Of a stretch of 64,000 nt of DNA, positions 12,424 through 37,085 are shown in pieces. The stretch is from an uncultured Alphaproteobacteria bacterium (GTDB taxonomy: Bacteria; Pseudomonadota; Alphaproteobacteria; Rhizobiales; Xanthobacteraceae): assembly GCA_963736275.1 (NCBI GenBank), contig CAVTOP010000017.1, positions 7,551 through 71,550 on the forward strand. Direction: 5' to 3'. Under the pieces are notes generated by a model. It did not search any database, was not told the origin of the DNA, and saw only the letters and a program-made list of their open reading frames with translations. The stretch's first letter is position 1. Every line of letters starts with the position of its first letter. The position numbers and the translations under genes were made by a program.

Positions 12424-12439
12424 TGTGACCAAGGTCACA
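12424..12439 (-). promoter_or_regulatory. CRP-type box TGTGA-N6-TCACA, class II position
   Basis: Perfect TGTGA-CCAAGG-TCACA. A -10-like TAGTGT at 12402-12397 puts the box centre near -41.5. Confidence 0.7.
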
Positions 12440-20250: not shown

Positions 20251-20279
20251 GGTCCTCCCCTTCTGCACGCTGAGCATAC

Positions 20280-21305: not shown

Positions 21306-21430
21306 CCTTCTCCGCTATCTGCTCGACGCCTGCGCTGGATTCTTGAGCGAATTCTTCAACGCCAGGTTTCGCCGCTACGCATAGCGCAGGACTCTACATC
21401 ATGCTGGGATATTTGGCGCGCCGGCGTCGA

Positions 21431-21446
21431 TTGGACCGAGGTCCAA
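21431..21446. promoter_or_regulatory. TTGGAC-N4-GTCCAA operator-like palindrome, site 1
   Basis: gtcga-TTGGAC-cgag-GTCCAA, 126 bp upstream of the DUF1254 operon. Confidence 0.7.
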
Positions 21447-21478
21447 CCGAAACTGCCGATCGCAAAATTTCCGATTCA

Positions 21479-22030
21479 CTTTTCAAACAGCCGATGTCGC
21501 TTGGAGCAAGCGCCATCGCCCGTATTCTTTGTCGAGGCCCCGGGCAGGCCCGTCTTCCCTTTGTCTCTCTCCCCTCCGGATGCGAGGGGATGGCGCGCCA
21601 GGGGGCGCTGCCGTAATCGGTTCAATATCCGCATCTCCTTGCGAAGATGCGGAAGCGCCTCCCGGCGCGCCACCCGGACAGTCTTATGTCCGGGCTCATT
21701 TGCGGCCGTCTTCTTCCGCTTCGCCCAATGTCGGAAGCGGAACTGCTGCGCCGGGCCGCGCTTTGCGTTTTCGCGCCTTTGGCTTGCCGCTCCTTCCCCA
21801 CGTTCGCCGGCCCCTTGTGAGTAGCCATTGAGCGTCAGGCGCTTGCGGCAGGCTGCCGGCGGTACTCTGCGTCAGCCAGCTCCTGGCAGGCGGCTCCTAT
21901 TGGCCACCGGGCGGAGCCCCGGCGCCGCCCGGGTGCTTGGGAGGAGCGTTCGTCTCCCGCCCGCGGGCGCCGCATCCGGCTCCATCATCAGACGCCTCTA
22001 GATGACGCCCCTCGATTGAGCCGGACCTGA
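21479..22030. ncRNA. Candidate long structured non-coding element (structured RNA or non-autonomous mobile repeat)
   Basis: At least eight stems in ~550 nt with no credible CDS. Stems are listed in the findings. Confidence 0.45.
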
Positions 22031-22259
22031 TGTGACTACTATCCTATAGGAATAAAGTCAAGAGGCGGTTTGGCTTTCGGTCCGTTACGGAATGCGGTGG
22101 CAGGTTACTCTCGTGCGAACAACTGGCCGCTGAAAGCAAATCTTTGGCGCCGCACAACAGGACGCGCGTCTCGAACTTCCCGTAGATACAGCCGTCCAAC
22201 GATGACGGTCCTGACGCCGCGCCATTCGGTGAAGCGTGGGACACAATGGAAACGTCCCG

Positions 22260-22457
22260 ATGATTGATGTCGATAGTCCACCCCTGGCGCCCATCTGCGC
22301 CGCATGCGGCACGCACTTGATGCTGACCCCCAGCGGCCATCCTTTTTGTACCGATCCGACCTGCACGGACGGATTTGGTACCGACATTCTCCGTCAACTT
22401 TTCGGTGCCGCGCTCAACACCAAGCCGATCAACCTCCACCGGAAACAATCGCGATAA
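22260..22457 (+). CDS. Possible small zinc-ribbon protein
   Basis: CAAC and CTDPTC motifs in a 65 aa ORF; no family recognised. Confidence 0.3.
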   Translation: MIDVDSPPLAPICAACGTHLMLTPSGHPFCTDPTCTDGFGTDILRQLFGAALNTKPINLHRKQSR

Positions 22458-22534
22458 CGTACGCGTTCTTGCGGCCCCGTCGCGCGTCGTTACGCCACCG
22501 GCAGCCATGAAGCGACAAGCGAAGTCGGCACCTG

Positions 22535-22714
22535 TTACCTCTGGTTTGCGTCCAGTTCCTTGATGACTGTTTGAGCGTTGTCGCCGACTTTGGCAATCGC
22601 GGCTTCGATCTCAAGGCGCGACTTTTTCAGACGCTTGCACCAGTGACGCGTCATATCCTCGCTGGATATGTCGACACGATTTCTCGCCGGCTTCGCGGCT
22701 GAAGCTTTCACCAT
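22535..22714 (-). CDS. DUF3606 family small protein
   Basis: RVDISSE...HWCKRL...LEIEAAIAKVGDNAQTV. Confidence 0.72.
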   Translation of the reverse strand: MVKASAAKPARNRVDISSEDMTRHWCKRLKKSRLEIEAAIAKVGDNAQTVIKELDANQR

Positions 22715-22749
22715 GATTGACGGTCCTTTGTGATCATAGACAAGCGGCG

Positions 22750-22813
22750 AATTGTCTTTTTGTTCCTTGTTCCCCCGGCCTGCAGGGAACGACCGCGGTT
22801 CAACCGAATTGTT
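22750..22813. promoter_or_regulatory. Possible divergent sigma-EcfG (general stress) promoters
   Basis: GGAAC-N17-ATT toward csbD (from 22786) and GGAAC-N16-ATT toward DUF3606 (from 22773). CsbD genes are typical EcfG targets. Confidence 0.35.
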
Positions 22814-22868
22814 TGGCATATGCCAACGCACCAAAAGGCGGCGCGTCAAACAACACAGGAGATGAGCC

Positions 22869-23072
22869 ATGGATTGGAATCGCGTCGAGGGAAACTGGAA
22901 ACAGTTCAAAGGCAAGGTCAAAGAGAAGTGGGGTGATCTCACCGACGACGACCTGGACACGATCAACGGGCAGCGCGATCAGCTCGAGGGAGTGATCCAG
23001 GAACGCTACGGCATCGCAAAAGATCAAGTCAGAAAAGACGTCGATGCCTGGCTGGAAGGGGAAAAGGTGTAA
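22869..23072 (+). CDS. CsbD family stress protein
   Basis: MDWNRVEGNWKQFKGKVKEKWGDLTDDDL...RDQLEGVIQERYGIAKDQ. Confidence 0.92.
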   Translation: MDWNRVEGNWKQFKGKVKEKWGDLTDDDLDTINGQRDQLEGVIQERYGIAKDQVRKDVDAWLEGEKV

Positions 23073-23075
23073 AGC

Positions 23076-23581
23076 CAAGACAACTGCCAGGTGGCGGTGT
23101 CGCTGTCGCTTGCCAATCGCTACACGAGCCTGCCGGTGGCCTACCGTCTGTATCTGCCGGAAGACTGGTCGCAGGACAGCAACCGGCGGCGCAAGACGGG
23201 CGTGCCTGAGGATGTCCGCTTCAAGACCAAGCCCGAGATCGCGCTGGAGCAGATCGCGGCCGCCTGCAAGGCCGGCCTTCCTCTCGGCGTGGTGCTGATG
23301 GACGCGGGCTATGGCTGCAACACCGACCTGCGCACCGGAGTCAGTGCGCTCGGATTGCGCTATGTGGCTGGCATCCTGCCGAACACCTCTGTGTGGACAT
23401 CGGGCACGGGGCCGTTGCCGCCCAGAAAATGGTCGGGCCGGGGGCGTCCACCGAAGCTCATCCGCCGGGACGACAAGCATCGACCGGTCTCGGTCAAGCA
23501 ATTGGCTCTCGGCTTGCCAAAGCGCGCTTGGCGCACGATCCAGTGGCGCGAGGGGACGGCTGAGTGGCTGTCCTCGCGCTT
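23076..23581 (+). mobile_element. IS701-family transposase internal fragment
   Basis: NCQVAVSLSLA...LPVAYRLYLPEDW...FKTKPEIALEQI...VLMDAGYG...WREGT..WLSSR. Both termini are missing. Confidence 0.87.
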
Positions 23582-23658
23582 AGAGCGTCGTTTCACGAAC
23601 ATCAGGCATTGGCGGACATTGCTGCCGGGCAATGTCCGCTTTGCTGCATACGTTCCCG

Positions 23659-24600
23659 TCAAAACGGGTTGACGTAGTTCACGATCGCGATCTGCCGCAG
23701 GATCACTTTGCGGATGATATGGCTCGGCTTGATGTGGTCGGTGTAGATCGCCGCGGCGCCGGCGGTGCCGGCCGGCAGGCTGGCGGCGAGCTTGGGGTCG
23801 TCGAGCTTGACGCGAACGACAAATGGCGCCGCCGTGACTTGCCTCGGCGTCACGGCCGTACCCGAAGCGAGAACCTGGCCTGTCGACGTCGCCTGCAAGA
23901 CGGCGTCGACCTTGCCGTTGAAGACCTGGCCGGGGAATAGCTTGAACGTCACCTCAACCTCCTGGCCGGGCCGGATGTAGCGGGTATAGATCTGCGGGAT
24001 CTCGACCCCGACGACCGTCTCGGACGTGTCGATGAAGGCCATCACGGGCGAGAGCGGCAGGCTCGCAACGCGCGCGCCCTTCATAAGTCCGACATTGGTG
24101 ACGTAACCGTCGGCTGGAGCACGCACGACGGTCTGGTCGAGGTTGTATTTTGCGCCAAGAAGCTGTCCCTTGAGCTTGTCGACATCGGCCTGGCGCTGCT
24201 CGACATCAAAGGCGCGGCCGGCGTCGCTGAGTTGCAATTGCGTCATCTGGGAGAGCCGCAATTCCTCGAACTTGACTTGCGCGCCGATGGCATCGACCTG
24301 CGCCTGGTAAGGGATTGGATCGATCTTGAACAACACGTCGCCCGCCTTGAGCGGCTTGTTGGGCTCGACCGGGACCTCCGTCACCTCCCCCGCCACGTTG
24401 GGAACGATCTGCACCGAATTGCGCACCACCAGCGCCACACCCTGCGGAGCGCCCCACCCCATCGGAATAAAGAGCCCAAACATCAGCAACAGAAGAACAA
24501 TGAGCGGCGAGCACTTCCAGAACAGGTTGAAGGGGACGATCTTGGTCTTCACCAGGATAAAGAGGATGACGAGATAGACGTTCAGGATGGCGACAATCAT
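23659..24600 (-). CDS. HlyD/EmrA-like membrane fusion protein
   Basis: VPNVAGEVTEV, GDVLFKIDP and VRAPADGYVTN. ATGA overlap with DUF3302. Confidence 0.9.
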   Translation of the reverse strand: MIVAILNVYLVILFILVKTKIVPFNLFWKCSPLIVLLLLMFGLFIPMGWGAPQGVALVVRNSVQIVPNVAGEVTEVPVEPNKPLKAGDVLFKIDPIPYQAQVDAIGAQVKFEELRLSQMTQLQLSDAGRAFDVEQRQADVDKLKGQLLGAKYNLDQTVVRAPADGYVTNVGLMKGARVASLPLSPVMAFIDTSETVVGVEIPQIYTRYIRPGQEVEVTFKLFPGQVFNGKVDAVLQATSTGQVLASGTAVTPRQVTAAPFVVRVKLDDPKLAASLPAGTAGAAAIYTDHIKPSHIIRKVILRQIAIVNYVNPF

Positions 24601-24833
24601 CGTGCCGCCTCCCCCTTGCGCGCCGGAATGTCGACATAGGCCCAGATCAGGGCCACCGGCCACAGCGCAAACCCACAGATCAGCGTCACCCAGCCTGCGA
24701 CGGTGACGGCCTGCGCCCACGGATGGCCGCGGCTTTTGGCGATGTGTCCAGGCAGCGAACCGGCGATGAAGAATATCGCGATCCCGCTTGCCACGAGAAT
24801 GAGAAGGACGATCCAGGCGAAGATATCGATCAT
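24597..24833 (-). CDS. DUF3302 family membrane protein
   Basis: LPGHIAKSRGHPWAQAVTVAGWVTL..GFALWPVALIWAY. Confidence 0.88.
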   Translation of the reverse strand: MIDIFAWIVLLILVASGIAIFFIAGSLPGHIAKSRGHPWAQAVTVAGWVTLICGFALWPVALIWAYVDIPARKGEAAR

Positions 24834-24955
24834 TGTTGTGCTCTGTTATCTCAGCGCCAGATCGTTTCCATGGCTCGTGACGTTCTCCCTTCTTTACAAC
24901 GCCCGTGAAGCGGCGCCCTCGCCGTCAGGGTCCGCTGAAGAAGAGCTCGCGCCTG

Positions 24956-25894
24956 TTATTTCTCGGTGTCGACCACCTTCTTCCAGGTGTGATCGGGGCT
25001 GAACGACGTCATGCGCGAGGCTGTTCGCGCCGTGCGGTCGCCGAGATCCTTTTGATAGATGTCGCCGTCATTGTTGATGATGAAGGTCATGATGCCGGAG
25101 TTGCCGTATTCCGCCGGATAGGCGACAAGCCCGAAACCGCCGATCATGTTGCCGTTGACGACATAGTCCACGGCGCCGCCGGGCGCGGTCGGGCCCTGGC
25201 GTGTCAGGAGCTTGAAGCGATAGCCGTTGAAAGGCTCGCCGGCGCCCGGGCGATAGCCGCGTTGCGTCGCCGCCGCGACCGCATCACCGAGCGGGCTTGG
25301 CTTTTCGTTTCCGCTCGTCGGCCAATAGAGCCCGTCCTTCTTGCCGGGCGAGCTGACGATCCGTTGCGCATAGACCGCCTGGCCGCTCTTGTCCTTGTTC
25401 ATGTCCGCAAATTCGTTCTGCGCGTCCCAGTAGGCGAGCATGGCTTTCAGGGTCGCGAGCTCGTTGCGGCCGATGCGGCGCGCCAGGATTTCCTCACGGC
25501 CGGCAACGGTATCGAAGGCCCATTGGCCGTCCTTTTGCGCCATCGGAATCGGGAACGGCCAGTTGTCGGGGCCCATCACCAGCGTGGCAGGCTTGCCGGG
25601 CTCGGAGACAATGCGATGCCCGGCGTCATAGGCCGCCAGGAATTCCTTTTTTATGTTCTCGTCCTCCACCGGATCGCCGGATGACACGATTTCCTGCGAT
25701 CCGGGGCCGAGGATCGTAAGCACCGACCTGCGGTCGCCGCTGCGTGCCGCGTTGATGAGCGCGTTAACGGCCTCCTGCGGCGTGCTGAAACGCTGCTGCG
25801 CCTGCGCCAGCGAGGACAGCGCGAGGATCAGCGTCGCCGCGCCGACCAGGATGGTGATCTTGCTCAAGAGACGAACGTGCTGTGATTTGATCAT
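24956..25894 (-). CDS. DUF2950 family exported protein
   Basis: FSTPQEAV, WPFPIP, EILARRIGRNE, DGLYWP, PFNGYRFKLL and PAEYGNSGIMTFI. Confidence 0.9.
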   Translation of the reverse strand: MIKSQHVRLLSKITILVGAATLILALSSLAQAQQRFSTPQEAVNALINAARSGDRRSVLTILGPGSQEIVSSGDPVEDENIKKEFLAAYDAGHRIVSEPGKPATLVMGPDNWPFPIPMAQKDGQWAFDTVAGREEILARRIGRNELATLKAMLAYWDAQNEFADMNKDKSGQAVYAQRIVSSPGKKDGLYWPTSGNEKPSPLGDAVAAATQRGYRPGAGEPFNGYRFKLLTRQGPTAPGGAVDYVVNGNMIGGFGLVAYPAEYGNSGIMTFIINNDGDIYQKDLGDRTARTASRMTSFSPDHTWKKVVDTEK

Positions 25895-25907
25895 GGCCGT
25901 TCACCTG

Positions 25908-27494
25908 TCAATGCGGTTGCGGAGCAGCGGACGGAATCCGCGCCCCCGTGGCGAGCCACTGGTCGTAGGTTTGGAATTGCAGCCCGAGCTTGTCGTAGAA
26001 GACGCGCAGGTAGCCGTCGTGACCGCGGATGACGGCATCGGGCGCAACGACCTGCACCTCCTGCGCCATCACGCCGACATAGGCCTTGTCGCTGCCGTTG
26101 TAGCTGAAGCGATAGTAGCCGAGTCCGTTGTCGAGATGGCCGAGCAAGGTGACGTCATGCTTGAGCGCGATGTCCGAGCGACGTCCGCCGCCCCCACCGC
26201 CACGGCCACCACCGCCGCCACCGCCGCGGCCGCCACCGCCACCGCCCATGCGCGCGCCACCACCGCCGCCGCCACGCGCGCCCATGCTTGCATGACCGCG
26301 TGATGCCGAGGCCATCGCGCTGCGGCCGCCACCGCCGCTGCCGGCGAAGGCATTGTGGCCGCCACCGCCAGGACGGGATGCACCTTTTTGTCCGCCGCCA
26401 GCCGGACGCGTTGCAGCTTTTTGACCGCCACCGCCGCCACCGGGCCGATTGCCGGCACCCGGACGGTCGCCGCCGCCGGGACGTTGCACGCCGCCACCAC
26501 CCGCACCGGGACGATTGCCGGCACCTGGGCGGTCGCCGGCGCCGCCCGGCCGCAACGCGGCCTGGCCGTTGTGACCGCGGAAGTCCGTGCGGTTACCTGC
26601 ACCGCCGCGGATGTTGTTGCCCTTGTTCATTCTGTCGGCGACGCCTTTGTTGTTGTAACGGACGCCATGCCGGTGATCGACGTTATGATTCCAGTTGCCA
26701 CCGCCGCCGCCTGGCCGATTGATGTTGATGTTATTGTTGTTCCAGTTGATGTTGGCGTTACCGCCCCAATAACCTCCGCCGCCGGCCCAGCGCCCGATCG
26801 CATAGCCCGCGCCGAATGCCAGACCCGCGCCCAAAACTGCGCCGCCATACGGCCAGTAGCTGGCGCCCCAGTAGTAAGGCGGATACGCCGGGTAACTCCA
26901 CGCGCCATAAACCACTGCCGGATCGTAGTAAGGCACGTACATGGTTTGCGGATCGCTCGGCTCGATCACGATCACCTGCTTGCTGCCTTCACTTTTCTTA
27001 GTGACTTTCTGCTGCTTTGTGGTCTGCAGCTTGTTGTTCGCGTCGGCTTTTGCGCGCAGCCGCTGAACGCCATCCATCACATCGGTCTGCTGCGCGAGCA
27101 TGGCGTCGCCGAGCTTTTGGGTCCAGTCGAGCTTGTCGCTCATCATGTCGAGCACTGACGGGGTCGCGACGAGCGAGGTCACGCTTTCATCCCACCCTTG
27201 TTTCTCGGCGGCAGCCTTCAGCGCATCGTCCTTGAGACCCTTGTTTTCCTTCGCCCATCGGCTCGCCTGGACGACCTCGAGTGGATAGGTTGCTGCCATC
27301 AGCACCTGGGACAGCAGCGTGTCCGGATAAAGCGCGACCGGCGAGAGGAGCGCATCGATTTCTCCGGGCTGAGCAGAAGTTATCCGTGCTGGAGCGCTCG
27401 CCGGTGCGGGACCCGGCTGGGTCTGCGCGCTTGCCACAGGGGCAACGGCAACAAACAGGATGAATGCCAGTGATTGCGCGAGGAATTTCGACAT
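25908..27494 (-). CDS. DUF3300 protein with Gly/Arg-rich region and C-terminal Peptidase S74 (intramolecular chaperone) domain
   Basis: PVALYPDTLLSQVLMAATYPLEV, WDESV and YVPYYDPAVVYG (DUF3300). RPGGG repeats. RSDIALKHD...YRFSY...GVMAQEV...V.Y. Confidence 0.88.
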   Translation of the reverse strand: MSKFLAQSLAFILFVAVAPVASAQTQPGPAPASAPARITSAQPGEIDALLSPVALYPDTLLSQVLMAATYPLEVVQASRWAKENKGLKDDALKAAAEKQGWDESVTSLVATPSVLDMMSDKLDWTQKLGDAMLAQQTDVMDGVQRLRAKADANNKLQTTKQQKVTKKSEGSKQVIVIEPSDPQTMYVPYYDPAVVYGAWSYPAYPPYYWGASYWPYGGAVLGAGLAFGAGYAIGRWAGGGGYWGGNANINWNNNNININRPGGGGGNWNHNVDHRHGVRYNNKGVADRMNKGNNIRGGAGNRTDFRGHNGQAALRPGGAGDRPGAGNRPGAGGGGVQRPGGGDRPGAGNRPGGGGGGQKAATRPAGGGQKGASRPGGGGHNAFAGSGGGGRSAMASASRGHASMGARGGGGGGARMGGGGGGRGGGGGGGRGGGGGGRRSDIALKHDVTLLGHLDNGLGYYRFSYNGSDKAYVGVMAQEVQVVAPDAVIRGHDGYLRVFYDKLGLQFQTYDQWLATGARIPSAAPQPH

Positions 27495-27556
27495 GGTCAC
27501 TCCCTCGGTTCGCCCATCGTCGAGCGAGCTCAATGTAATCTTAGTCTGCTCGCGGC

Positions 27557-27576
27557 GCCTTGACCTAGGTCAAGGC
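27557..27576 (-). promoter_or_regulatory. FNR/FixK-type box TTGA-N6-TCAA, class II position
   Basis: Perfect 20 bp palindrome gccttgacctaggtcaaggc. A -10-like TACATT at 27537-27532 puts the centre at -41.5 for the DUF3300 operon. Confidence 0.68.
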
Positions 27577-27602
27577 TAGAAAAAGAGCCGTGATTGATCG
27601 AG

Positions 27603-27618
27603 TTGGACCGAAGTCCAA
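27603..27618. promoter_or_regulatory. TTGGAC-N4-GTCCAA palindrome, site 2
   Basis: atcgag-TTGGAC-cgaa-GTCCAA, 109 bp upstream of DUF3300. Confidence 0.7.
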
Positions 27619-27672
27619 TAGCCGCCATCGGGGGCTAAAGTTTGACCCTGTCGAACTAACTCGATTCACTCC

Positions 27673-27778
27673 CCGCTCGTCCCCGCGAAAGCGGGGACCC
27701 AGAACCAAAAGCACTGGATCCCCGATAGGCGTGCGAAAGCACGCCGTCCTTCGGACGGCTATGCGCGGGAATGAGCGG
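27673..27778. repeat. Type-2 palindromic repeat carrying module B
   Basis: ccgctcgtccccgcgaaagcggggaccca...[ataggcgtgcgaaagcacgccgtccttcggacggctatg]cgcgggaatgagcgg. Confidence 0.88.
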
Positions 27779-27785
27779 AGAATGG

Positions 27786-28791
27786 CTAAGGAGACGGAAA
27801 GATCTGCTTCCAGTCGGCCTTCATGTCGACGACGGTCCAGTTGCGTTTGCTGGCCTCGTCGAGCGCCTTGTCGAGCTTGCCGATGTGCGATTTCCGGTCA
27901 TAGGCGTATTCACGCTCGACGTCGGTGTGATGGACGATGCCCATAAAACGGGCGCCCGTGCCACGCGGCCGTCCACTGCAGCATCTGCAGGTCGCCGTCC
28001 GAATTGCCGAAAGCAAAAATTGGATGACCCCCGATGAAGCGATTGATGCCCGACCGGCTTGCCCGGACCGTCATCGACAAACTCGACCTTCGGCAGCTTG
28101 AGCAGCGAAGCGCGTCCGTCGGGCTTGATCTCGAATTTTGTGACACCGGAAGAGCCGACGACCTGCTCCGGCGGAATGCCATAAACCTTCTCGGTCCACG
28201 GGCGCATGAACTCGATGCCGCCGCCGGACACGATGAAGGTCTTGAAGCCATTGGCACGAAGGTATCCCAGTAGCTCGAGCATCGGCTGGTAGATGAGTCT
28301 CGATATAAGGCCGCTTGAAGCGCGGATGGCGCGCGGTTGTCGTCCACTCGCAGCACGATTTTTGAGAAATGATCGACCGTCATGCCGGTGTGGGTCGCCG
28401 CTATGATCTCAAGCAGACCTTTTTCGCCGCTCGCCGCCAGGGCTTTGATGTCGTGGTCCAGCACGGCCTTGAACGGTTGCTTCGTTTTCCATTCCGGATG
28501 CTGCGGCGCCATCGCCTTGAGGCGGTCGAAAGCAAAGGCGACCTGGAAATAGACCGGCTGCTCGCATCACAGCGTGCCGTCATTATCGAACGTCGCGATG
28601 CGCTCCTCGGGCGGCACGAAGTCCGCAGAACCCTGCGTCGTCACGCGGGCGACGAAATCCGTGATGGTTTTCTTCGCCGCGCCGTCGTTCCAGGAGGGCA
28701 ACGGGTCGGACGTTTGCGCAAAGGCGCCGCCAGCGAGGGCAACCGCAAAGACTGCCGCAAAAATCGTGCGGCGACTGACCGGCAAAGTCAT
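27786..28791 (-). CDS. Exported HAD-family hydrolase (reading frame broken by an in-frame TGA and several indels)
   Basis: Signal peptide, DPLPSWNDG, IATFDNDGTL*xEQP, FIVSGGGIEFMR, FAFGNSDGD and WTVVDMKADWK, spread over four ORFs. Confidence 0.8.
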
Positions 28792-29127
28792 CGCAAGCGG
28801 GTCTTTGGCGGGGTTGCGGTCGAGGCAGAGGACTCCGAATTCTTTACGGGCTCGATCACTGCGCCTGAAATGATCGAGCACGAAGACGCGGATGGCAGAC
28901 GACAGATTGCTCGTTGTGCGGCTGTGATCGATCGTCGCCACCAGCGTCGAGATCGCCACGTGCTTGTCGTCGGCAATCTCGCGCAGCGCGTCCCAGAACT
29001 GATCTTCAAGCGAAATGCTCGACTTGTGCCCGTTGCGTATGACCGAACGCTTGATCACCGACGAGTTCTTGCGGCCTTGCGGCGGGTGAACGCGACCGGC
29101 GGTTTCAAAGGCCACGGCGTGATCCAT
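28788..29127 (-). CDS. Ribbon-helix-helix (RHH_4-like) protein, +1 frameshift near 28840
   Basis: KRSVIRNGHKSSISLEDQFWDALREIA...NLSSAIRVFVL. Removing one base from GAATTC at 28837-42 makes the stop overlap the HAD ATG (ATGA). Confidence 0.82.
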
Positions 29128-29204
29128 GACTGTCTCCGTTATTTCTGCGACTCCGGCGAATTTTCATATGGCGAGATTAAGCGCAGACATGCGCCGGGAT
29201 CGAG

Positions 29205-29220
29205 TTGGACCAAGGGGCAA
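29205..29220. promoter_or_regulatory. Degenerate TTGGAC box, site 3
   Basis: atcgag-TTGGAC-caag-GGGCAA, 78 bp upstream of the RHH/HAD genes. Confidence 0.5.
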
Positions 29221-29237
29221 GTCCGGGCGAGAGCCGG

Positions 29238-30119
29238 TCAGCGCTCTTTTCGCAATATCTGCCGGGCTTTTTCCAAATCGCGGTGCGCGGCCCCGGTCAC
29301 CTTGGGATATTTGAGCTCAAGCCTGCCCAGCGCCTCCACCACTTCGGCGGCGACGACGAGGCGCGTGAACCACTTGTTGTCGGCAGGCACGACGTGCCAG
29401 GGCGCTTCCGGCCGGCTGGTATGGCGGATCATGTCCTCGTAGGCGGCCATGTATTTGTCCCAGAGCTTTCGCTCCGCGACGTCACCCATCGCGAATTTCC
29501 AATTCTTCGCGGGCTCGTCGATGCGCTCGAGAAACCGCCGTTTCTGTTCCTCCTTCGACACGTGCAGAAAGAATTTCAGGATCAGCGTCCCGTTGCGCGC
29601 AAGGTAACGCTCGAAGGCCCGGATATCCTTGAAGCGCTCCTTCCAGATATCCTTCGTGACAAGCTTGGCGGGCATCTTCTCTTTCGCGAGAATCTCCGGG
29701 TGCACGCGCACCACCAGAACTTCTTCGTAATATGAGCGGTTGAAAATTCCGATCCGCCCGCGCTCGGGAAGACGGCGTGCGGTGCGCCACATGAAGTCGT
29801 GATCCAGGTCCTCCTGGCTTGGCTGCTTGAAGGAATGCACCTCGCAGCCTTGCGGATTTACGCCTTTCATCACGTGTTCGATCGCGCTGTCCTTTCCGGC
29901 CGCATCCATGGCCTGGAAGATCAGCAATATTGCCCACCGATCCTGCGCATAAAGCCGCTCCTGCAGCTCGGACAGCCGCTTGACGCCCTCCTCCAATAAG
30001 TCCTTGGCCTCCTTCTTTTCGATGTCGAGGCCCTTGGTATCGCCGGGGTCCCAATCCTTGATACGGAAATTGTCGGGATCATCGACGCGGTAGAGCTTGG
30101 CGAACTTCGTGAGGCTCAT
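29238..30119 (-). CDS. ppk2: Polyphosphate kinase 2 family (polyP:AMP phosphotransferase-like)
   Basis: FQAMDAAGKDSAI, HDFMWR, IGIFNRSYYEEVLVVRVH, KFFLHVSKEEQ and VPADNKW. Confidence 0.92.
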   Translation of the reverse strand: MSLTKFAKLYRVDDPDNFRIKDWDPGDTKGLDIEKKEAKDLLEEGVKRLSELQERLYAQDRWAILLIFQAMDAAGKDSAIEHVMKGVNPQGCEVHSFKQPSQEDLDHDFMWRTARRLPERGRIGIFNRSYYEEVLVVRVHPEILAKEKMPAKLVTKDIWKERFKDIRAFERYLARNGTLILKFFLHVSKEEQKRRFLERIDEPAKNWKFAMGDVAERKLWDKYMAAYEDMIRHTSRPEAPWHVVPADNKWFTRLVVAAEVVEALGRLELKYPKVTGAAHRDLEKARQILRKER

Positions 30120-30206
30120 GCAATGTCTCTTGGTCCAATCATCGGGCTACCGGGCACCAACCGAGCATGCCACAGCATATTTCTACGGGGCATCACGAAT
30201 AGCAAA

Positions 30207-30229
30207 CCGGCCGGCAAGCTGCCGGCCGG
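30207..30229 (-). terminator. Hairpin downstream of sulfatase
   Basis: ccggccggca-agc-tgccggccgg followed by ttt on the minus strand. Confidence 0.5.
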
Positions 30230-30249
30230 CGACTAGCCAAGGCTCGTGA

Positions 30250-32043
30250 TCAGCGAACGCCGCGCTGCTGCATCTGCTGCTGGATCATCCTGTTTAGCGC
30301 GCCACGAACCTGCTCGGGATCCAACCCTTCCTTCAGCATCTTTCTCGTCTTCATGTCGTCGAGCGTGCTTTCCAAGACGTTTGCGGGGTTGAAGCTCGGT
30401 GGGAACGAGCGTGGCGGGAAGTCCTTGAATGTGGCCACGAACCTGAAGACTTCATCCATCATCCCGTAGGCGCTTCCGACGTGGTTGATCTGCCAGTCCC
30501 AGAAGGTATTGGAGGTGATGTCGGCACGCTCGAACGGGTCCTGCATCAGATTGAAGATCTTCTGCAGACGGAGCGTCGTGAACGGTTCGGCCCACACGCC
30601 CATCGTGCCTTCCTTGCGCTGTTCGGAGAAGACGTACTTGTAGTCGCCCTGCCGTAGGGCCACGAGCAGGCCGTCGTCGTCGCAATAAAAGAATGTGTTA
30701 CGAGCACTTCTCGTCCCATTGTTGTTCGCCGCAGTGCCGTTCACGTTGCGCAGGAACTCCGACTGATCATATCCGTCGAGGTGCACTTTGTAGCTGATGC
30801 CATTGGCCGTGTAGCCGCTGCGCAGCTTGTTGACGATGTCGGGCTCGCCGGCAATAGCACAGAGCGTTGGTATCCAGTCGTTGTGGCTCATCAGCTCGTT
30901 GGTGACTGTCCCGGGCTTGAGCACCGCGGGCCAACGGACAAGGCACGGAACGCGGAAGGCGCCCTCCCAGTTGGTGTTTTTCTCGGAACGGAACCAGGTC
31001 ATGGCGCCGTCCGGCCAGGTGTTCATGTGAGGTCCGTTGTCGCTGCTGTAGATGACGACGGTGTCGTTCGCGACGCCCATGTCGTCGAGCGCCTTGAGCA
31101 GTGTCCCGACGGTATCGTCGTGCTCGAGCATGCCGTCGATGTACTCACTGTCGCCGTGCGTGTAGCGGCCACGATGCGAGGCACGGACGTGCGTCCGCAG
31201 GTGCATACGCGTTCCGTTGAACCAACAGAAGAACGGCTTGCCCGCCGTTTGCTGCCGCTTCATGAAGTCGATGGCTGCGGCCGAAGTTTCGTCGTCGATC
31301 GTCTCCATCCGCTTCTTGTTGAGCGGCCCGGTGTCCTCGATGGTCTGCTTGCCGATCTTGCCGAAGCGCGGATCGACTGTGGGATCATCCCGGTCGGTCG
31401 CCTTGCACTTGAGAACGCCGCGCGGTCCGAACTTGGCCTTGTAGGCCGGATCCTTCGGATAGTCCGGCAGCTCCGGCTCTTCCTCGGCGTTGAGATGGTA
31501 GAGGTTGCCGAAGAATTCATCGAAGCCGTTCACGGTCGGTAGCGATTCGTTGCGGTCGCCGACGTGGTTCTTGCCGAACTGACCGGTGGCGTAGCCGAGA
31601 TTCTTGAGCAGGCCGCCAACGGAGGGGTCGAGCTGGCTCATGCCCATCGGGGCGCCGGGGAAGCCCACTTTGGTCAACCCGGTGCGAATGCCGTGCTGGC
31701 CGGTCAGGAACGCGGCGCGGCCCGCGGTGCATGACTGCTCGCCGTAGTAGTGCTGCATCTTGATGCCTTCGCGGCCGATGCGATCGATGTTCGGCGTCTC
31801 GTACCCCATCAGGCCGTTTGAGTAGGCACTGATGTTCGCAATGCCAACGTCGTCCCCCCAGATGACGAGTATGTTCGGTTTACGCCCGGACGGTGCAGCT
31901 GCGGGTCGCTGCTGCTGCGCCTGTGCCGTTTGCACTGGGGCACTGGCGGCAAACGCCGAGGCGGCAGCCATCGTCGTGCCGGCGAGCAGAATATTGCGCC
32001 GGCTGACGTCGGTTGCGCTCTTTTCATCAATCTTCTTGGTCAT
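30250..32043 (-). CDS. Tat-exported arylsulfatase (Cys-type)
   Basis: SRRNILL Tat motif, PNILVIWGDD, SCTAGRAAF, GKNHVGD and SSDNG. Confidence 0.93.
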   Translation of the reverse strand: MTKKIDEKSATDVSRRNILLAGTTMAAASAFAASAPVQTAQAQQQRPAAAPSGRKPNILVIWGDDVGIANISAYSNGLMGYETPNIDRIGREGIKMQHYYGEQSCTAGRAAFLTGQHGIRTGLTKVGFPGAPMGMSQLDPSVGGLLKNLGYATGQFGKNHVGDRNESLPTVNGFDEFFGNLYHLNAEEEPELPDYPKDPAYKAKFGPRGVLKCKATDRDDPTVDPRFGKIGKQTIEDTGPLNKKRMETIDDETSAAAIDFMKRQQTAGKPFFCWFNGTRMHLRTHVRASHRGRYTHGDSEYIDGMLEHDDTVGTLLKALDDMGVANDTVVIYSSDNGPHMNTWPDGAMTWFRSEKNTNWEGAFRVPCLVRWPAVLKPGTVTNELMSHNDWIPTLCAIAGEPDIVNKLRSGYTANGISYKVHLDGYDQSEFLRNVNGTAANNNGTRSARNTFFYCDDDGLLVALRQGDYKYVFSEQRKEGTMGVWAEPFTTLRLQKIFNLMQDPFERADITSNTFWDWQINHVGSAYGMMDEVFRFVATFKDFPPRSFPPSFNPANVLESTLDDMKTRKMLKEGLDPEQVRGALNRMIQQQMQQRGVR

Positions 32044-32127
32044 TTCTTTCTCCTAAGAATAGCTTACCGACGTCTCCCGGATGCGGTCATGTGCCCGTCC
32101 TGTTCGTGTCGATCGCGAATGCTTGCC

Positions 32128-32433
32128 TCACCGCGCCGGCTGACCCGACATCATGTTCTTCACGAGGCCGACGATGAACGTAAGGATCGCGCCGGCAACG
32201 CCGCCGCCCACGGCCTGACCGAGCACCGCACCAATATCCAGACCGCCACCCGCGCCCGCAAGCATCGGGATAAGCGATGAAAGGACCGTGCCGCCAGCAA
32301 CACCGCCGATTGCACCCGAGATCGAGTTGCCGAGCGTGCCGAGGTCGTAGTTCTTGAGCGCGTTACCCGCCGCATTGCCGCCGATCGCGCCCGCGATGAG
32401 CTGAATGATGAGATTGATCAGTGTGCCTGACAT
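32128..32433 (-). CDS. Gly-rich small membrane protein
   Basis: MSGTLINLIIQLIAGAIGGN...GGGVAGAILTFIVGLVKN. Confidence 0.75.
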   Translation of the reverse strand: MSGTLINLIIQLIAGAIGGNAAGNALKNYDLGTLGNSISGAIGGVAGGTVLSSLIPMLAGAGGGLDIGAVLGQAVGGGVAGAILTFIVGLVKNMMSGQPAR

Positions 32434-32509
32434 GAGCGCCTCCGTTGCTGCCGCGTTTGAAGTGGGACGTCCCTCCTCGCTCACCCTGTGTAGAATTATT
32501 CGATCTGTT

Positions 32510-33518
32510 TCAAGATTCCGCGCGTGTCCGCACGACACACCGAAAGCCGACATGACTGGTTGATGTGTCGACCGGTTGCGCGTGGCGCGCGGCCGGACGG
32601 TAGCGGCGGCAATAGTTCGGCGCGCAGAGATGCGAGCCGCCCTTTAAAACTTTGCGCGGAATCCTGATGTTCGGCTGGCAGGAATTGTAACTCGCGCTCT
32701 CCGGACCGCCGCGTGGATTTTCCGGAATGCAGCACGCTTTCGGCGCGTCGGCCTGATGCTTGGCCGAGAACCAGTCGCTGGTCCATTCCCAGACATTGCC
32801 GATCATGTCGTGAACGCCATAGCCGTTCGGCGGGAACGCCGTCACCGGCGACGTGCGCCTGAACCCGGGCTTGCCGCTGGTGCGGAAAGTCGCCGTGCCA
32901 TGTGTTCGCCATCGCACGGTTGTTTGGCATGAACTCATCGCCCCATGCGAATTCCGTGTCCTCGAGACCACCGCGCGCCGCGAATTCCCACTCGGCTTCG
33001 GTCGGCAGATCCTTGCCTGCCCAGCGCGCGTACAGAAACGCATCCGAATAGGCGATGTGCACGACCGGATGCTCGTCGAGGCCCTTGATGTTGCTGTCGG
33101 GGCCGTAAGGATGTTGCCAGTTCGCGCCTTTGAGAAACGTCCACCACTGGCTCCAGTCGCGCAGATCGACCGGATGCTTCGGCGGCGTGAACACCAGCGA
33201 GCCCGCGAACAGCATGATCGGGCAGCGCGCCGGGATAATCCTTCGGATCGGGCGGAATTTCCGCGAACGTCACATGTCCGGTCGCCTTCGTACAAATTCC
33301 CGGAACTGCCGGTTGGTGACAGGCGTGCGGTCGATCCAGAAATCGCTGACAGTGACGCGGTGGACCGGTGCTTCCTCCGGATAGTGCTTGTCCGAGCCCA
33401 TGCGGAACGTACCGCCCGGAATCCGGATCATGTCGGTGGTATTGACGTCCTGCGTCTCAGCCAAATTGCCCGCAACCCGAAAGCGCGGCTTGGCGTCCGT
33501 CCACGCGTGCTCGCTCAT
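32510..33518 (-). CDS. Formylglycine-generating enzyme (SUMF1/EgtB-like), three apparent frameshifts
   Basis: FRMGSDKHYPEEAPVH, LPTEAEWEFAARGGL, DMIGNVWEWT and KGGSHLCAPNYCRRYRPAAR...SHVGFRC, split over ORFs. Confidence 0.9.
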
Positions 33519-33553
33519 ACGGTCATGCTACGCGGGGCAACGCTACAATCGAG

Positions 33554-33569
33554 TTGGACCGTGGTCCAA
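33554..33569. promoter_or_regulatory. TTGGAC-N4-GTCCAA palindrome, site 4
   Basis: atcgag-TTGGAC-cgtg-GTCCAA, 36 bp upstream of the FGE gene. Confidence 0.7.
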
Positions 33570-33708
33570 TGTTCCCCCGGGGAACCAAAACGCGCGAGGC
33601 GGCAGGGGGACGGGGAGGTGGGGGGATTGCCGCCTCGCGCATCATGAGGCCGACATCACAATGGATGTCTTAACGTGGGAGTTTCTGCCCAATAAACGAT
33701 CGTGTCGA

Positions 33709-33724
33709 TTGGACCGTGGTCCAA
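33709..33724. promoter_or_regulatory. TTGGAC-N4-GTCCAA palindrome, site 5
   Basis: gtcga-TTGGAC-cgtg-GTCCAA in the divergent FGE/kinase intergenic region. Confidence 0.7.
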
Positions 33725-33814
33725 TACCCGGCATGTATTTTTGTAAAATCGCCGCGGCCTCCCTTGGCCGAATGGTGGATGCTATAAATACCGCTCCCCG
33801 CCGAAGGACGGACG

Positions 33815-35878
33815 ATGGATCAAATTGCGTCTGACATTTCAGTGCGATCACTTCTCAAGCGCAGCGCACGTTTCGGCGGCACTAACACAATTCGCAAGGT
33901 CTTTATCGTTGCGATCGCGTACTACCTCGGCGCTGAAATTGCCTTTCTGATCGGCACGCTGTCGGACAGGATCTTTGCGCCATTCTGGCCGCCGAACATT
34001 GTTCTGTTTTGCGCGCTCCTGATCACGCCACCACGGCAGTGGTGGATTTACATCGCGGCCACCCTCCCCGCCCATACGATCGCCGAGATCGGCGTCGGCA
34101 TGCCGATGCCGCAATTGGTCGTGGCCTTCGTGACGAACTGTCTGGTTGCAATCGCCAATGCTTTTGCTGTGCAACGCCTGATGGTCGGGCCTCCCTGGTT
34201 TGGCACCATCGGCAAGACAATTATCTACGTTCTGATCACCGCATTTCTGAGCCCGGCCTTTTGCGCGCTCGGCGGCGCCTTCGTCCAGGTTCTCGGCAGC
34301 GGGTCTATGGACGATTACGGACTCTATTGGGCGCGCTGGTACGCATCCAATGCGCTCGGCAGCCTGACGCTCGGGCCCATCGCCATGATCTGCATGGAAC
34401 GCACAACGCGGCCGACTCTCGCGCCGACCGGACGCGCCGTGGAGGCCGCCATCATTGCGGCGTTGTTGATCGCGGCCTGCATCATTGCATTTGAAGACTT
34501 GCCGTCGATTGCGAGCGGCTATCTGCCGCTGCTTTTGTATCTCCCTCTGCCGATCATCGTCTGGGCTGCGGTGCGCTTCGGCGCCAAGGGTTCAAGTGGG
34601 GCAGTATTCGTGATCAGCGTCGCCCTGATATGGCGCACGCTCAACGGCCCAAGCCTGTTCGACATCGGCTCGCCCGAAGCAAACGTGTTTGGCATGCAGC
34701 TTTTTCTGATCGGCCTGTCGCCACCGATCCTGTTGCTTGGATCCGCTATCGAGGAAACGCGGCGCGCGGAACGAACGACGCGCGAGAGCGAGGAGCGGAT
34801 ATCATTCGCGGCAGCAGCCTCGAACGTGGGACTTTGGCAGTACGAATTTGCGACGGGCGTGTTCTGGGCGACGGATTACTGCCGGACACTGTTCGGCCTG
34901 TCTCCAGGCGAGCCCCCGAATCTTGATACGCTGGTGAGCCGGATTCATCCAAACGACTCGCCGACAGCGAGCGCGGCACTGGGAGCAGCCATATCTCGCG
35001 CGACACCACTGGACGTCGAGTTTCGCGTGCAGGACGGCGAGGAGATTCGGTGGATCTCGGTGCGAGCACGGCCGGTCCGCGGCGACGACGGTAAGCCGGC
35101 GGCGATGTCGGGCGCATTCGGCGATGTGACATCCCGCAAGTTGGCCGAAGCCGAAGCCGACGTGCAGCGCCAGGAAATCGCGCACCTGATGCGGGTGTCG
35201 ATGCTCGGCGAACTCTCCGGCGGACTGGCGCATGAGCTGACGCAGCCGTTAACCGCGATTCTTTCCAACGCGCAGGCCGGAAAGATGCTGCTCGCAAAGG
35301 GCAACAAAGCTCTGTCAGAAATCGGCAACATACTTGATGACATAATCGCGGAAGACGAGCGCGCCGGAGAAGTGATTTACCGGCTCCGCGGCATGCTGAA
35401 AAAGGGCGACGTCAGACACGAACCGATCGATATGAACGAACTCATTGCCTCGACCTTGCGGCTCCTGCACAGCGAGCTGATCGATCGCCGGATGTCCGTG
35501 AGTTTCGATAATGCCGCCAATCTGCCGGCAACGCATGGCGACCCCGTGCAATTGCAGCAAACATTGCTCAATCTTTTGGTGAACGCGATGGACGCGACGG
35601 AAAATGTCCCGCCAGCCCGACGCACCATTTCGATCAGCACCACAACGACCGACGATGGCGGGGTCGAGGTGCACATTTATGATCGTGGTAGCGGATTGCC
35701 TCCATCGCGGGAGCAGGAGGTTTTTCAGCCGTTTTTCACGACAAAGAAGCGAGGTCTCGGCCTCGGCCTGTCGATCTGCACGTCGATCGTAAAGCTGCAT
35801 GGCGGGACGCTTTCGCTTCAAAATAATGTGAGAGAAGGCGCGACCGCGATTTTTCGGCTTCCACCGCCGCTGGATTGA
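33815..35878 (+). CDS. MASE1-PAS sensor histidine kinase
   Basis: Multi-TM MASE1 (FWPPNIVL, SNALGSL), a PAS domain, H-box LAHELTQPL, N-box NLLVNAMDA, G1 DRGSG and G2 GLGLGLS. Confidence 0.94.
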   Translation: MDQIASDISVRSLLKRSARFGGTNTIRKVFIVAIAYYLGAEIAFLIGTLSDRIFAPFWPPNIVLFCALLITPPRQWWIYIAATLPAHTIAEIGVGMPMPQLVVAFVTNCLVAIANAFAVQRLMVGPPWFGTIGKTIIYVLITAFLSPAFCALGGAFVQVLGSGSMDDYGLYWARWYASNALGSLTLGPIAMICMERTTRPTLAPTGRAVEAAIIAALLIAACIIAFEDLPSIASGYLPLLLYLPLPIIVWAAVRFGAKGSSGAVFVISVALIWRTLNGPSLFDIGSPEANVFGMQLFLIGLSPPILLLGSAIEETRRAERTTRESEERISFAAAASNVGLWQYEFATGVFWATDYCRTLFGLSPGEPPNLDTLVSRIHPNDSPTASAALGAAISRATPLDVEFRVQDGEEIRWISVRARPVRGDDGKPAAMSGAFGDVTSRKLAEAEADVQRQEIAHLMRVSMLGELSGGLAHELTQPLTAILSNAQAGKMLLAKGNKALSEIGNILDDIIAEDERAGEVIYRLRGMLKKGDVRHEPIDMNELIASTLRLLHSELIDRRMSVSFDNAANLPATHGDPVQLQQTLLNLLVNAMDATENVPPARRTISISTTTTDDGGVEVHIYDRGSGLPPSREQEVFQPFFTTKKRGLGLGLSICTSIVKLHGGTLSLQNNVREGATAIFRLPPPLD

Positions 35879-35907
35879 GGTAACCTTTGCCGCCGTGAGG
35901 TGTGTGA

Positions 35908-36546
35908 GTGATGGGCGACGCGGGCTTCACTACCTATCTGGTCGACGACGATCCGGCCGTGCTTCGGTCGATTACGCGGCTTTTAAAAGCGGGCGGGTTC
36001 AAGACCAAATCCTTCTCGTCACCGCAGAAATTTCTTTCCGTTCATGATCCATCCGTTCCCGGCTGCGCGATTATCGACCTCGTGATGTCGGAGCTCGATG
36101 GTCTGCGCCTGCAGGAGGCCCTGGCCCGATCGGGCTCCCAACGGCCCATCATTTTTTTGACCGGGCGCGGTGACGTCTCCACCAGCGTCAGGGCGATGAA
36201 AGCCGGCGCCGTCGATTTTCTGACGAAACCTGTCAAGCGGGACGCACTCTTTTCGGCGGTCGTGCAGGCGGCTGAGCTCGATGCCGCGTCGCGACAAAAA
36301 CGGCAGGAAAGCAAATCGATCGACGAGAGGTTTGCCGCCCTTACCCGCCGCGAGCGCGAAGTCCTGGAGCATGTGATCGCCGGGCGGCTTAACAAGCAGA
36401 TCGCTGCAACCCTGGGTACTGTAGAAAAAACGATCAAGGTGCACCGCGGCCGCATGATGGCCAAGCTGGGGGTACGGAGCGTGGCCGAGCTGGTTCGCCT
36501 TGCGGACCGGGCCGGAATCGCGCCGGCGGGCAGTATCCCGCAGTAG
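35908..36546 (+). CDS. FixJ/NodW/StyR-like response regulator (REC-LuxR HTH)
   Basis: LVDDD, IIDLVM, DFLTKP and LTRREREVL...LNKQIA..LG..EKTIKVHRGRMMAKL. Confidence 0.94.
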   Translation: MMGDAGFTTYLVDDDPAVLRSITRLLKAGGFKTKSFSSPQKFLSVHDPSVPGCAIIDLVMSELDGLRLQEALARSGSQRPIIFLTGRGDVSTSVRAMKAGAVDFLTKPVKRDALFSAVVQAAELDAASRQKRQESKSIDERFAALTRREREVLEHVIAGRLNKQIAATLGTVEKTIKVHRGRMMAKLGVRSVAELVRLADRAGIAPAGSIPQ

Positions 36547-36598
36547 GCCCTTCGGGCAACTCGACGGGGCTAGCTGTTTCGCATGACAATACAGCGGT

Positions 36599-37025
36599 AT
36601 GTCAAAAGCCCCTATCCGGGTCGCGATTGTGGACGACGAGGCATCCGTGCGCACGGCGCTAGCGCGCCTGTTGTCCGCATCATCATTTGAGCCGACGACT
36701 TACGGCTCGGCCCGGGAATTCATCGATTTCAATCCGTACCGACATTCCCGAGTGCCTGATCGTCGATGTGCATATGCCGGAGTTCACGGGGCTCGATCTG
36801 CAGCGGTATCTCAATCGCATCAACAAGAGGATTCCCACAGTTGTCATTACGGCTTTCGACGATGCCGGCGTGCGCGAGCGGAGCACGGCGTCGGGTGCAA
36901 AGGCATTCCTCACCAAGCCGCTGCACGGCCCGACCCTCATCGATGCAATCCTGAACGCAACAGGGAGGACGTTGCCGGCTGCGTCGCCGGCGCGGGCGGC
37001 GAATTTGAGGAAAAGGAGATCTTAA
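36599..37025 (+). CDS. Single-domain response regulator (receiver), +1 frameshift near 36728
   Basis: IVDDE...; removing one T from GATTTC gives DSIRTDIPECLIVDVHMP...ITAFDD...FLTKP. Confidence 0.85.
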
Positions 37026-37085
37026 GCGTTCTTGCAACGGGCCGTTCGTGTAGATTTCGAGCGGAGCAAATAAGGGGGACTAACG

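Follow-up and report, generated by a model that had tools for sequence, protein, structure and literature searches.

We analysed a 64-kb stretch of a metagenome-assembled genome of a soil Pseudolabrys sp. (C17:7551-71550 of a 4.24-Mb, 20-contig assembly with 61% G+C; the whole stretch is called the window hereafter). It encodes a two-component system, consisting of a MASE1-PAS sensor kinase (33815-35878, plus strand) and a response regulator (35908-36546, plus strand), and it carries several copies of the inverted repeat TTGGACC-NN-GGTCCAA (the box) in front of neighbouring operons. As a whole, the data are best explained if the box is the operator of this FixJ/StyR/EL222-type regulator; on sequence grounds, we put the probability of this assignment at roughly 80%. 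Five independent lines of evidence argue for it: footprinting over about 50 orthologous loci; the presence and absence of the box in 41 genomes, which track the helix-turn-helix (HTH) type of the regulator and not the RHH_4 protein; a recognition helix nearly identical to that of EL222, whose DNA consensus equals the core of the box; a fixed activator-type promoter geometry, like that of StyR at its site STY2; and a paralogous module that pairs a changed helix with a changed box. They support the central idea of the original prediction, which was made from the letters of this DNA, that the box links the operons of the island to the local MASE1 kinase and its FixJ/NarL-type regulator.

Sequence and copy number of the box

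In its 6-4-6 form, TTGGAC-N4-GTCCAA, the box is perfect at 21431, 27603, 33554 and 33709, as had been claimed. These are exactly the four perfect copies in the window, where 0 are expected, and a perfect box was found in none of 100 dinucleotide-preserving shuffles. The longer 7-2-7 form is perfect in three of the four sites, and the site at 27603 is one mismatch away from it. In either form, the inverted repeat of about 16 bp is enriched over chance. All perfect sites contain the core GGACC-NN-GGTCC, and the central dinucleotides seen in the boxes are GA, GT, CT, TC and AA. With two mismatches allowed, the degenerate copy at 29205 (TTGGACCAAGGGGCAA) joins the list. The weak copy at 36544 (TAGGCCCTTCGGGCAA) was also confirmed; its position upstream of a single-domain REC gene is kept in relatives. 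The half-site proposed at 30133 is at chance level, as 11 TTGGACC heptamers were counted against 6.3 expected and only three of them lie outside full sites.

The genome contains six perfect 6-4-6 copies, four inside the 12-kb island and the remaining two at C4:437795 and C11:65753, together with six more copies at one mismatch. The earlier statement that no perfect copy exists outside the island is thus correct for the window but not for the genome. A genome census of perfect NNNNACC-NN-GGTNNNN palindromes returned 16, among which only the TTGGACC outer half recurs, five times. The palindrome census also returned TGTGACCAAGGTCACA at 12424-12439 of the window.

Copy number and flanks bear on another explanation, that the palindrome is part of a mobile or repetitive extragenic palindromic (REP)-like repeat of no regulatory role. 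A 575-bp repeat (21470-22043) does begin 24 bp to the right of the site at 21431, but this box lies outside the repeat and the other copies of the repeat have no box. Moreover, the genome has just six perfect copies, their flanks are unrelated except for TCGA and a -10 signal, and every box examined stands upstream of a gene or a candidate open reading frame (ORF). We give the repeat explanation next to no credence. The 575-bp repeat itself is non-coding and has at least five other copies of 97-99% identity, on contigs C1, C3, C6, C7 and C15; probably, a non-autonomous mobile element has integrated here, between the promoter of DUF1254 and the gene next to it.

Conservation of the box across genomes

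Across the genome and its relatives, the box travels with the MASE1-kinase/regulator pair. A scan of named genomes gave about 50 kinase-orthologue loci (kinase 43-91% identical, 928 kb in total), which contain 49 perfect boxes, or 92 when one mismatch is allowed. Control loci, which have only the MASE1 domain in common (279 kb in total), contain 0 boxes; the chance expectation is 0.0004 perfect boxes per 100 kb. Although the gene order has been reshuffled, the boxes keep fronting the same genes, namely FGE, RHH_4, DUF3300 and REC. The orthologous site is located before DUF3300 in 12 loci and before RHH_4 in 16 loci, and the degenerate TTGGACCAAGGGGCAA is unchanged before the RHH_4 orthologues of loci L047, L053 and L085.

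Full-length kinase orthologues are present in five of 40 related genomes, all five with a box beside the kinase. Among 41 genomes, the strict box was found in the six with a full-length kinase orthologue and in G012 (four copies), G003 (one) and G014 (one); it was absent from the other 32, and a reversed-pattern control gave 0 throughout. An HTH-only search placed a regulator HTH of at least 67% identity in G000, G001, G008, G012, G022 and G023, with all others at 55% or below; these are the genomes that bear the box, and in G011 a contig end has cut off the regulator. Among these 41 genomes, the box occurs almost only where a regulator of the 35908 HTH type is encoded.

The same comparison bears on whether the RHH_4 (ribbon-helix-helix) protein of the island is the binder, with the box as its autoregulatory operator. 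An RHH_4 orthologue has a box in front in most loci, and in the most distant clade this is the only perfect box nearby; the near-symmetry of the GGWCC in each half-site would also be in keeping with binding by a ribbon-helix-helix dimer. However, RHH_4-domain proteins are found in 39 of the 41 genomes with a continuous spread of identity, including box-free genomes at an identity equal to that of the box-linked orthologues. The box is found in nine genomes, and its presence does not track that of the RHH_4 protein. Seven other RHH_4 paralogues in this genome are without a box, the box keeps its activator geometry upstream of a weak -35 at the RHH_4 promoter too, and the core sequence is already accounted for by the EL222-type helix of the regulator. 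We therefore regard RHH_4 as a very improbable binder, and the response regulator remains the preferred one.

Recognition helix and probable DNA specificity

Pfam search identified Response_reg (1.1e-24) and GerE (1.2e-18) domains in the regulator, and MASE1, PAS, HisKA and HATPase_c domains in the adjoining kinase. The GerE/LuxR-type HTH of the regulator, the proposed box binder, contains the recognition helix TVEKTIKVHRGRMM. The helix pattern TVEKT(I/V)KVHRGRMM is invariant in orthologues of more than about 60% identity, and the two most distant orthologues (L083 and L087) keep only the EKTIKVHR core. Among characterised proteins, EL222 has the closest helix; in the alignment to 8a5r/3p7n, the helix segment LGTVEKTIKVHRGRMM aligns with its LGLSEKTVKMHRGLVM, and the two share the pattern EKTxKxHRG. 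The published 12-bp consensus of EL222 is RGNCYWWRGNCY, RGNCY-WW-RGNCY (PMC10521638). Like this consensus, the box contains two RGNCY pentamers that are 2 bp apart, and its core GGACC-NN-GGTCC matches. The closest solved full-length structure to the regulator is that of StyR (1YIO, E 1.5e-47).

Predicted promoter architecture and direction of transcription

The common left flank of the boxes, TCGA or TCGAG, which the original prediction had pointed out, is real and significant. In 56 of 89 non-redundant sites from many genomes, one flank and only one carries TCGA, at offset 0 or 1; in none of them do both flanks. We oriented 47 sites by the TCGA flank alone and counted positions from its T; A is found at position 25 in 27 of the 47 sites and T at position 29 in 30 of them. 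The resulting pattern consists of the box, a weak -35-like TCGAYN, N17 and a -10-like (T)ANNNT, in which only A2 and T6 of the -10 are conserved. In such a promoter, the box would span about -52 to -36 and be centred near -44, which is the position of a class II activator; by these consensus-derived positions, it abuts or overlaps the weak -35 with its centre in the range of -41 to -45. For comparison, phosphorylated StyR activates PstyA from site STY2 at about -40 (PMC2442086).

The directional flank and the -10 signal place the main boxes in front of minus-strand operons, as had been proposed, and the distances from site to minus-strand start codon were confirmed as 126, 70, 78, 36 and 191 bp. 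Operator 1 (TTGGACCGAGGTCCAA, 21431-21446) is followed on the minus strand by -35-like TCGACG (21425-21430) and -10-like CAGCAT (21401-21406), upstream of the DUF1254/DUF1214 pair. Operator 2 (TTGGACCGAAGTCCAA, 27603-27618, minus) has TCGATC (27596-27601) and TAGCCT (27573-27578) at the same two places and is located upstream of the DUF3300-DUF2950-DUF3302-like-HlyD genes, whereas the degenerate operator 3 (TTGGACCAAGGGGCAA, 29205-29220, minus), with TCGATC (29198-29203) and TAATCT (29174-29179), is located upstream of RHH_4 and the HAD-type gene. Operators A (33554-33569, minus) and B (33709-33724, minus) have the same sequence, TTGGACCGTGGTCCAA. Operator A, with TCGATT (33547-33552) and TAGCAT (33525-33530), is upstream of the FGE-sulfatase genes; operator B, with TCGACA (33703-33708) and GAAACT (33680-33685), points to a candidate small RNA. 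The weak operator (TAGGCCCTTCGGGCAA, 36544-36559, plus) overlaps the stop codon of the regulator and, with TCGACG (36561-36566) and GACAAT (36585-36590), is upstream of the single-domain REC gene.

In the mechanism that we propose, the adjacent MASE1-PAS kinase presumably phosphorylates the regulator, and a phosphorylated dimer on the box would recruit sigma-70 RNA polymerase in class II fashion. Five minus-strand promoters would be switched on in this way, those of the DUF1254/1214 pair, DUF3300-DUF2950-DUF3302-HlyD, RHH_4-HAD, FGE-sulfatase and the candidate small RNA of about 100 nt, together with one plus-strand promoter, that of the REC gene after the regulator, which would provide feedback.

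The original prediction had also placed the site at 33709 upstream of both the kinase and the FGE-arylsulfatase operon. The site does end 91 bp before the kinase start, but its flank directs it to the divergent candidate small RNA. The kinase has an extended -10 element, TGcTATAAAT (within 33776-33790), which reads TGcTATA(A/G)AT among loci and is located about 30 nt before the ATG; its distance from box B varies among loci. Owing to this lack of a fixed geometry between box B and the kinase -10, and with the flank pointing away, direct autoregulation of the kinase is not supported, and transcription of the kinase-regulator pair appears to start at an extended -10 promoter that needs no activator. 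The suspected autoregulation more likely takes the form of feedback through the boxed REC gene.

Two of the boxed genes have their start codons very close to the promoter. The ATG of FGE is 6 nt after the -10, an arrangement (TAGCAT-N6-ATG, 33516-33530) that is conserved in relatives and from which a leaderless FGE-sulfatase mRNA is predicted. Taking FGE and REC together, the start codons are 6-8 nt after the predicted -10 hexamers (36585-36601 for REC), which suggests leaderless mRNAs for both genes.

CAAAAT-like hexamers 16 nt to the right of the boxes had raised the suspicion that the boxes drive plus-strand promoters. This was ruled out, since TCGA and the -10 are on the other side and the right-hand hexamers are not position-conserved in relatives. 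A simple scan of 33300-33900 for sigma-70 promoter and terminator consensus sequences returned no promoter and no terminator; the -35 is weak, and the hairpin loop is longer than the 8 nt that the scan allows.

Promoter geometry also bears on whether the regulator acts on the box as a repressor or roadblock instead of an activator. StyR is known to repress as well, through additional sites and looping (PMC2442086), and boxes A and B are 155-171 bp apart in many loci, so that looping would be possible. Against this, the box abuts at a fixed distance a poor -35 (TCGAYN, not TTGACA), followed by a -10 in which only A2 and T6 are conserved, which is typical of activator-dependent promoters, and the sigma-70 scan of 33300-33900 found no self-sufficient promoter there. 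Repression is thus quite unlikely, and we continue to view the regulator as an activator at these promoters.

A candidate small RNA between boxes A and B

Between boxes B and A, a conserved element is present on the minus strand. Its range, 33578-33684, is that of a covariance-model match, and we consider it a candidate for a previously undescribed small RNA. The first bases of the match overlap the predicted -10 (33680-33685), and the RNA itself would start near 33673. Two hairpins are predicted: one short first hairpin and one long stem (GCGCGAGGCG/CGCCUCGCGC) that closes a C-rich loop of 23-25 nt (CCCCCCACCUCCCCGUCCCCC) and is followed by GUUUUGG. The long GC stem is largely invariant, and the C-rich loop is anti-Shine-Dalgarno-like. 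The minimum free energy of the fold is -48.3 kcal/mol (z -4.72). A search of 21000-37500 against Rfam gave no match with an E value of up to 1.

The covariance model, R1, was built from ten copies and finds the small RNA in 24 loci, including the distant L057, L061, L063 and L068. It always adjoins the kinase on the opposite strand and starts 25-30 nt after a boxed promoter, which is present in 24 of the 24 loci. G000, G008 and G011 have a single copy; G023 has a second, weaker paralogue. Covariation is modest: 94.8% of the cells are paired, and the score is 0.182 compared to 0.105 in shuffles (0 of 500 reached 0.182), with eight of the 12 main-stem pairs never varying. A U-run follows the hairpin in the G000 group, L061 and L068, and is absent from the L046 group.

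Two other possibilities were tried for this element. A proline-rich leader peptide was considered and rejected, because the indels in the C-runs have lengths that are not divisible by three and the clades do not share one frame. For pairing of the loop with the ribosome-binding region of the kinase, only a 6-bp match was found, which is not general, and no target is proposed.

C-rich-loop small RNAs of the CcsR/'cuckoo' type are known from Alphaproteobacteria, and these families present a CCUCCUCCCC-type loop. The hairpin described here presents such a loop as well. Different from those families, it is without an Rfam match at E up to 1, and it consists of a single hairpin unit with its own boxed promoter beside a two-component system. 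Elsewhere in the genome, at C3:36150-36290, a hairpin with a very similar C-rich loop (CCCCACCCCTCCCCGTCCCC) is located directly after a stop codon and is followed by a terminator; it may be a 3'-untranslated region-derived RNA of the same loop type.

A paralogous module with a changed helix and a changed box

R1 also matches G003:C186 and G023:C34, at 51 bits. In both cases, TTGCACCAGGGTATAA stands in front of the paralogous RNA, with TCGACA, a gap of 17 nt and CAGATT after it. G003 also has a perfect TTATACCAAGGTATAA, placed in the same geometry between a regulator gene and a REC gene. The adjoining regulator helix in the paralogous module is VTEITVKVHRGHV, with EIT for EKT (Lys to Ile), and the outer half-site is TTATACC/TTGCACC compared to TTGGACC. 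These features would fit a single conserved module that was duplicated and re-specified, in which the two-component system and its operator go together with a REC gene and a C-rich-loop small RNA, both of them boxed; we put this forward tentatively, with the odds somewhat against it. StyR, with EVT in its helix and a reported ATAAACC half-site, would fall into the same series. If it is true, it is the residue after the helix glutamate (Lys, Ile or Val) that determines the outer two bases of the half-site, with ACC..GGT shared by all. This would amount to a simple recognition code for FixJ/StyR/EL222-type regulators, of possible use in engineering EL222-type tools, and the small RNA would be a new family hard-wired to such systems in soil Alphaproteobacteria.

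Several observations weigh against the assignment of the box to the local regulator. The co-variation of helix and box involves three sites only; TTATACC-NN-GGTATAA is perfect once in 41 genomes, and the co-variation is anecdotal. Unlike the WW of EL222, the centre of the box often contains G or C. One clade (L052, L054, L055 and L060) keeps the regulator with an unchanged helix and has no perfect box genome-wide, only a degenerate copy such as TTGGGCCATGGCCCAT, 112 bp before the kinase; in another clade, where the identity of the kinase is about 48%, no perfect box other than the one before RHH_4 occurs within 22 kb. The transcription starts were deduced from consensus only. Finally, this genome encodes a second regulator, on contig C13, with an identical core in its helix (VVEKTIKVHRGHV), and this protein could likewise recognise the box.

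The last point leads to a further explanation, that the box is bound mainly by the C13 paralogue, or by both proteins, with the local system as one of two inputs. The C13 regulator has the EKTIKVHRG core, and G012, which has a C13-type regulator and is without the local-type kinase and regulator, contains four perfect boxes, located before HdeA, MnhE, zf-UBP and one other gene. Around the C13 regulator itself, however, no box with up to three mismatches occurs within about 10 kb, and in dozens of genomes it is the local kinase-regulator pair that the boxes, the small RNA and the boxed REC gene accompany. We consider a leading or shared role of the C13 protein unlikely and retain the local regulator as the binder.

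Extent and possible role of the regulon

The regulon had been proposed to be co-located with its regulator. The operons of the island are indeed boxed, but the regulon reaches beyond it. In this genome, boxes outside the island are located before genes for LemA (C11:65833), a SHOCT/PLDc_N membrane protein (C2), a Cys-rich-repeat protein (C5), a sensor-kinase paralogue with a periplasmic binding-protein-like domain (C11:23454) and a winged-helix protein (C4); these few unlinked genes would also belong to the regulon.

In relatives, the boxed genes encode HdeA (in G012 and G023), an amino-acid permease, MnhE, a Na_Ca_ex antiporter, DUF1269, zf-UBP, an epoxide hydrolase, further sulfatases and a candidate glycoside hydrolase, the last named from sequence only. 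In two distant relatives, an Asp-Al_Ex (aspartate:alanine-exchanger) transporter and an aminotransferase of the aspartate-decarboxylase kind are boxed separately (L083:16899 and 19768; L087:13776 and 16638). Together with HdeA, these two genes hint at acid resistance. More broadly, the boxed genes (HdeA, the aspartate transporter AspT and the AspD-like enzyme, MnhE, the Ca/H antiporter and LemA) suggest a role in ion, pH or envelope stress rather than in nutrient scavenging; the sulfur/phosphate-ester scavenging put forward in the original prediction remains a guess. On the DUFs themselves, the literature yielded only the statement that DUF3300 and DUF2950 occur side by side, are secreted and show induction in rhizobial transcriptomes (PMC4653623).

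A paralogous island is present at C11:8300-25300, with an FGE-like gene, two sulfatases, an RHH_4/HAD-like pair, a regulator (36% identical), a REC gene and a sensor kinase. In front of this kinase are a one-mismatch box, TTGGCCCAAGGTCCAA, and then TTCAGC-N16-TAGAAT.

Comparison with known systems

The system very probably represents an ordinary kind of bacterial regulon, well supported and with a FixJ/StyR/EL222-type operator, and it would leave the knowledge of mechanism unchanged. Its closest relatives differ from it in several respects. Like the regulators of StyS/StyR (Pseudomonas, PstyA STY2) and TodS/TodT, the regulator combines REC with a GerE-type HTH, and StyR acts as a phosphorylated dimer on an inverted-repeat site at about -40 (PMC2442086). 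The helix is EVTVKVHRHN in StyR and EKTIKVHRGR here, the kinase here is a MASE1-PAS membrane sensor whereas StyS/TodS are soluble double-kinases, and the targets here are exported or stress-type genes and a candidate small RNA, not an aromatic catabolic operon. The StyR/TodT box, as quoted in the original prediction, reportedly reads ATAAAC-N4-GTTTAT, also a 16-bp palindrome with inner ACC..GGT; by this account, the outer half-site would be ATAA in StyR compared to TTGG here.

EL222 of Erythrobacter litoralis, a light-activated LOV-HTH protein, has the helix SEKTVKMHRG compared to VEKTIKVHRG here. It is a one-component LOV photosensor, whereas the regulator has a REC domain at its N-terminus, and only the HTH is alike; in addition, the centre of the box is commonly GT, GA or CT instead of WW, and the box is 16 bp long with conserved outer TT/AA. 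With FixL/FixJ, the system shares a PAS-HisKA kinase and a REC-GerE regulator, and the regulator has structural matches in FixJ (5XSO, E 4e-36, and, with the HTH, 1X3U). Different from FixJ, whose helix is PRTVEVHRAN, the system here has an N-terminal MASE1 sensor, without evidence of a haem-PAS and without fixK or nif targets. UhpB/UhpA of E. coli also pairs a MASE1-containing kinase with a NarL/FixJ-family regulator; UhpB has a HisKA_3-type core and needs UhpC, and the single target, uhpT, has a different operator.

What the analysis adds is a predicted regulator, operator and promoter architecture for genes known only as DUFs (DUF3300/DUF2950 and DUF1254/DUF1214), in a genus, Pseudolabrys, that is uncultivated and widespread in soil. 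For MASE1-type sensor kinases that work with a FixJ-like regulator, it would also provide a first predicted regulon. The candidate small RNA and the possible recognition rule are the most novel by-products.

Gene content of the island

The gene list of the island given earlier was confirmed by Pfam. On the minus strand, the two DUF1254/DUF1214 genes occupy 18889-21305, and the genes for DUF3300, DUF2950, a DUF3302-like 78-residue ORF (24597-24833) and an HlyD-family protein occupy 23659-27533. Adjacent to these are the RHH_4 protein, which is the N-terminal part of ORF 28567-29127, and, behind it on the minus strand, an exported HAD-type gene that runs across several frames (together 27786-29127). 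The segment 29238-32553 (minus) contains, in this order, a 141-residue ORF without assigned function, the sulfatase (30250-32043), a terminator-like hairpin and a PPK2 gene (29238-30119), the last of which is absent from the earlier list. FGE, a sulfatase-modifying factor, is located at 32510-33518 (minus), with its N- and C-terminal parts in different frames in the assembly. The single-domain REC gene (36599-37025, plus) opens with MSKAPIRVAIVDDD at 36599, and the rest of it is read in the same frame as ORF 36687-37025; its frame is broken here and intact in G008.

Four genes are frame-split in this assembly: FGE, the single-domain REC gene, the HAD-type gene (27786-29127) and the sensor-kinase paralogue at C11:23454-25302. 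Relatives have an uninterrupted frame for at least FGE, REC and the kinase paralogue, and the splits are either assembly indel errors or recent pseudogenes.

The junction between HlyD and DUF1254, which is contiguous in G023, is broken here by a 233-residue ORF (22800-23501), DUF3606 and a 154-residue ORF. The 233-residue ORF is without a Pfam match, and partial copies of it with about 88% identity are present on contigs C5 and C3. At 27556-27573, one second perfect palindrome, CCTTGACCTAGGTCAAGG, of the TTGAC-N4-GTCAA form (FNR/FixK-box-like), overlaps the predicted -10 and the start of the DUF3300 promoter. In the relative L053, the equivalent position reads TTTGACATACGTCAAA, and the palindrome may be the site of a second regulator.

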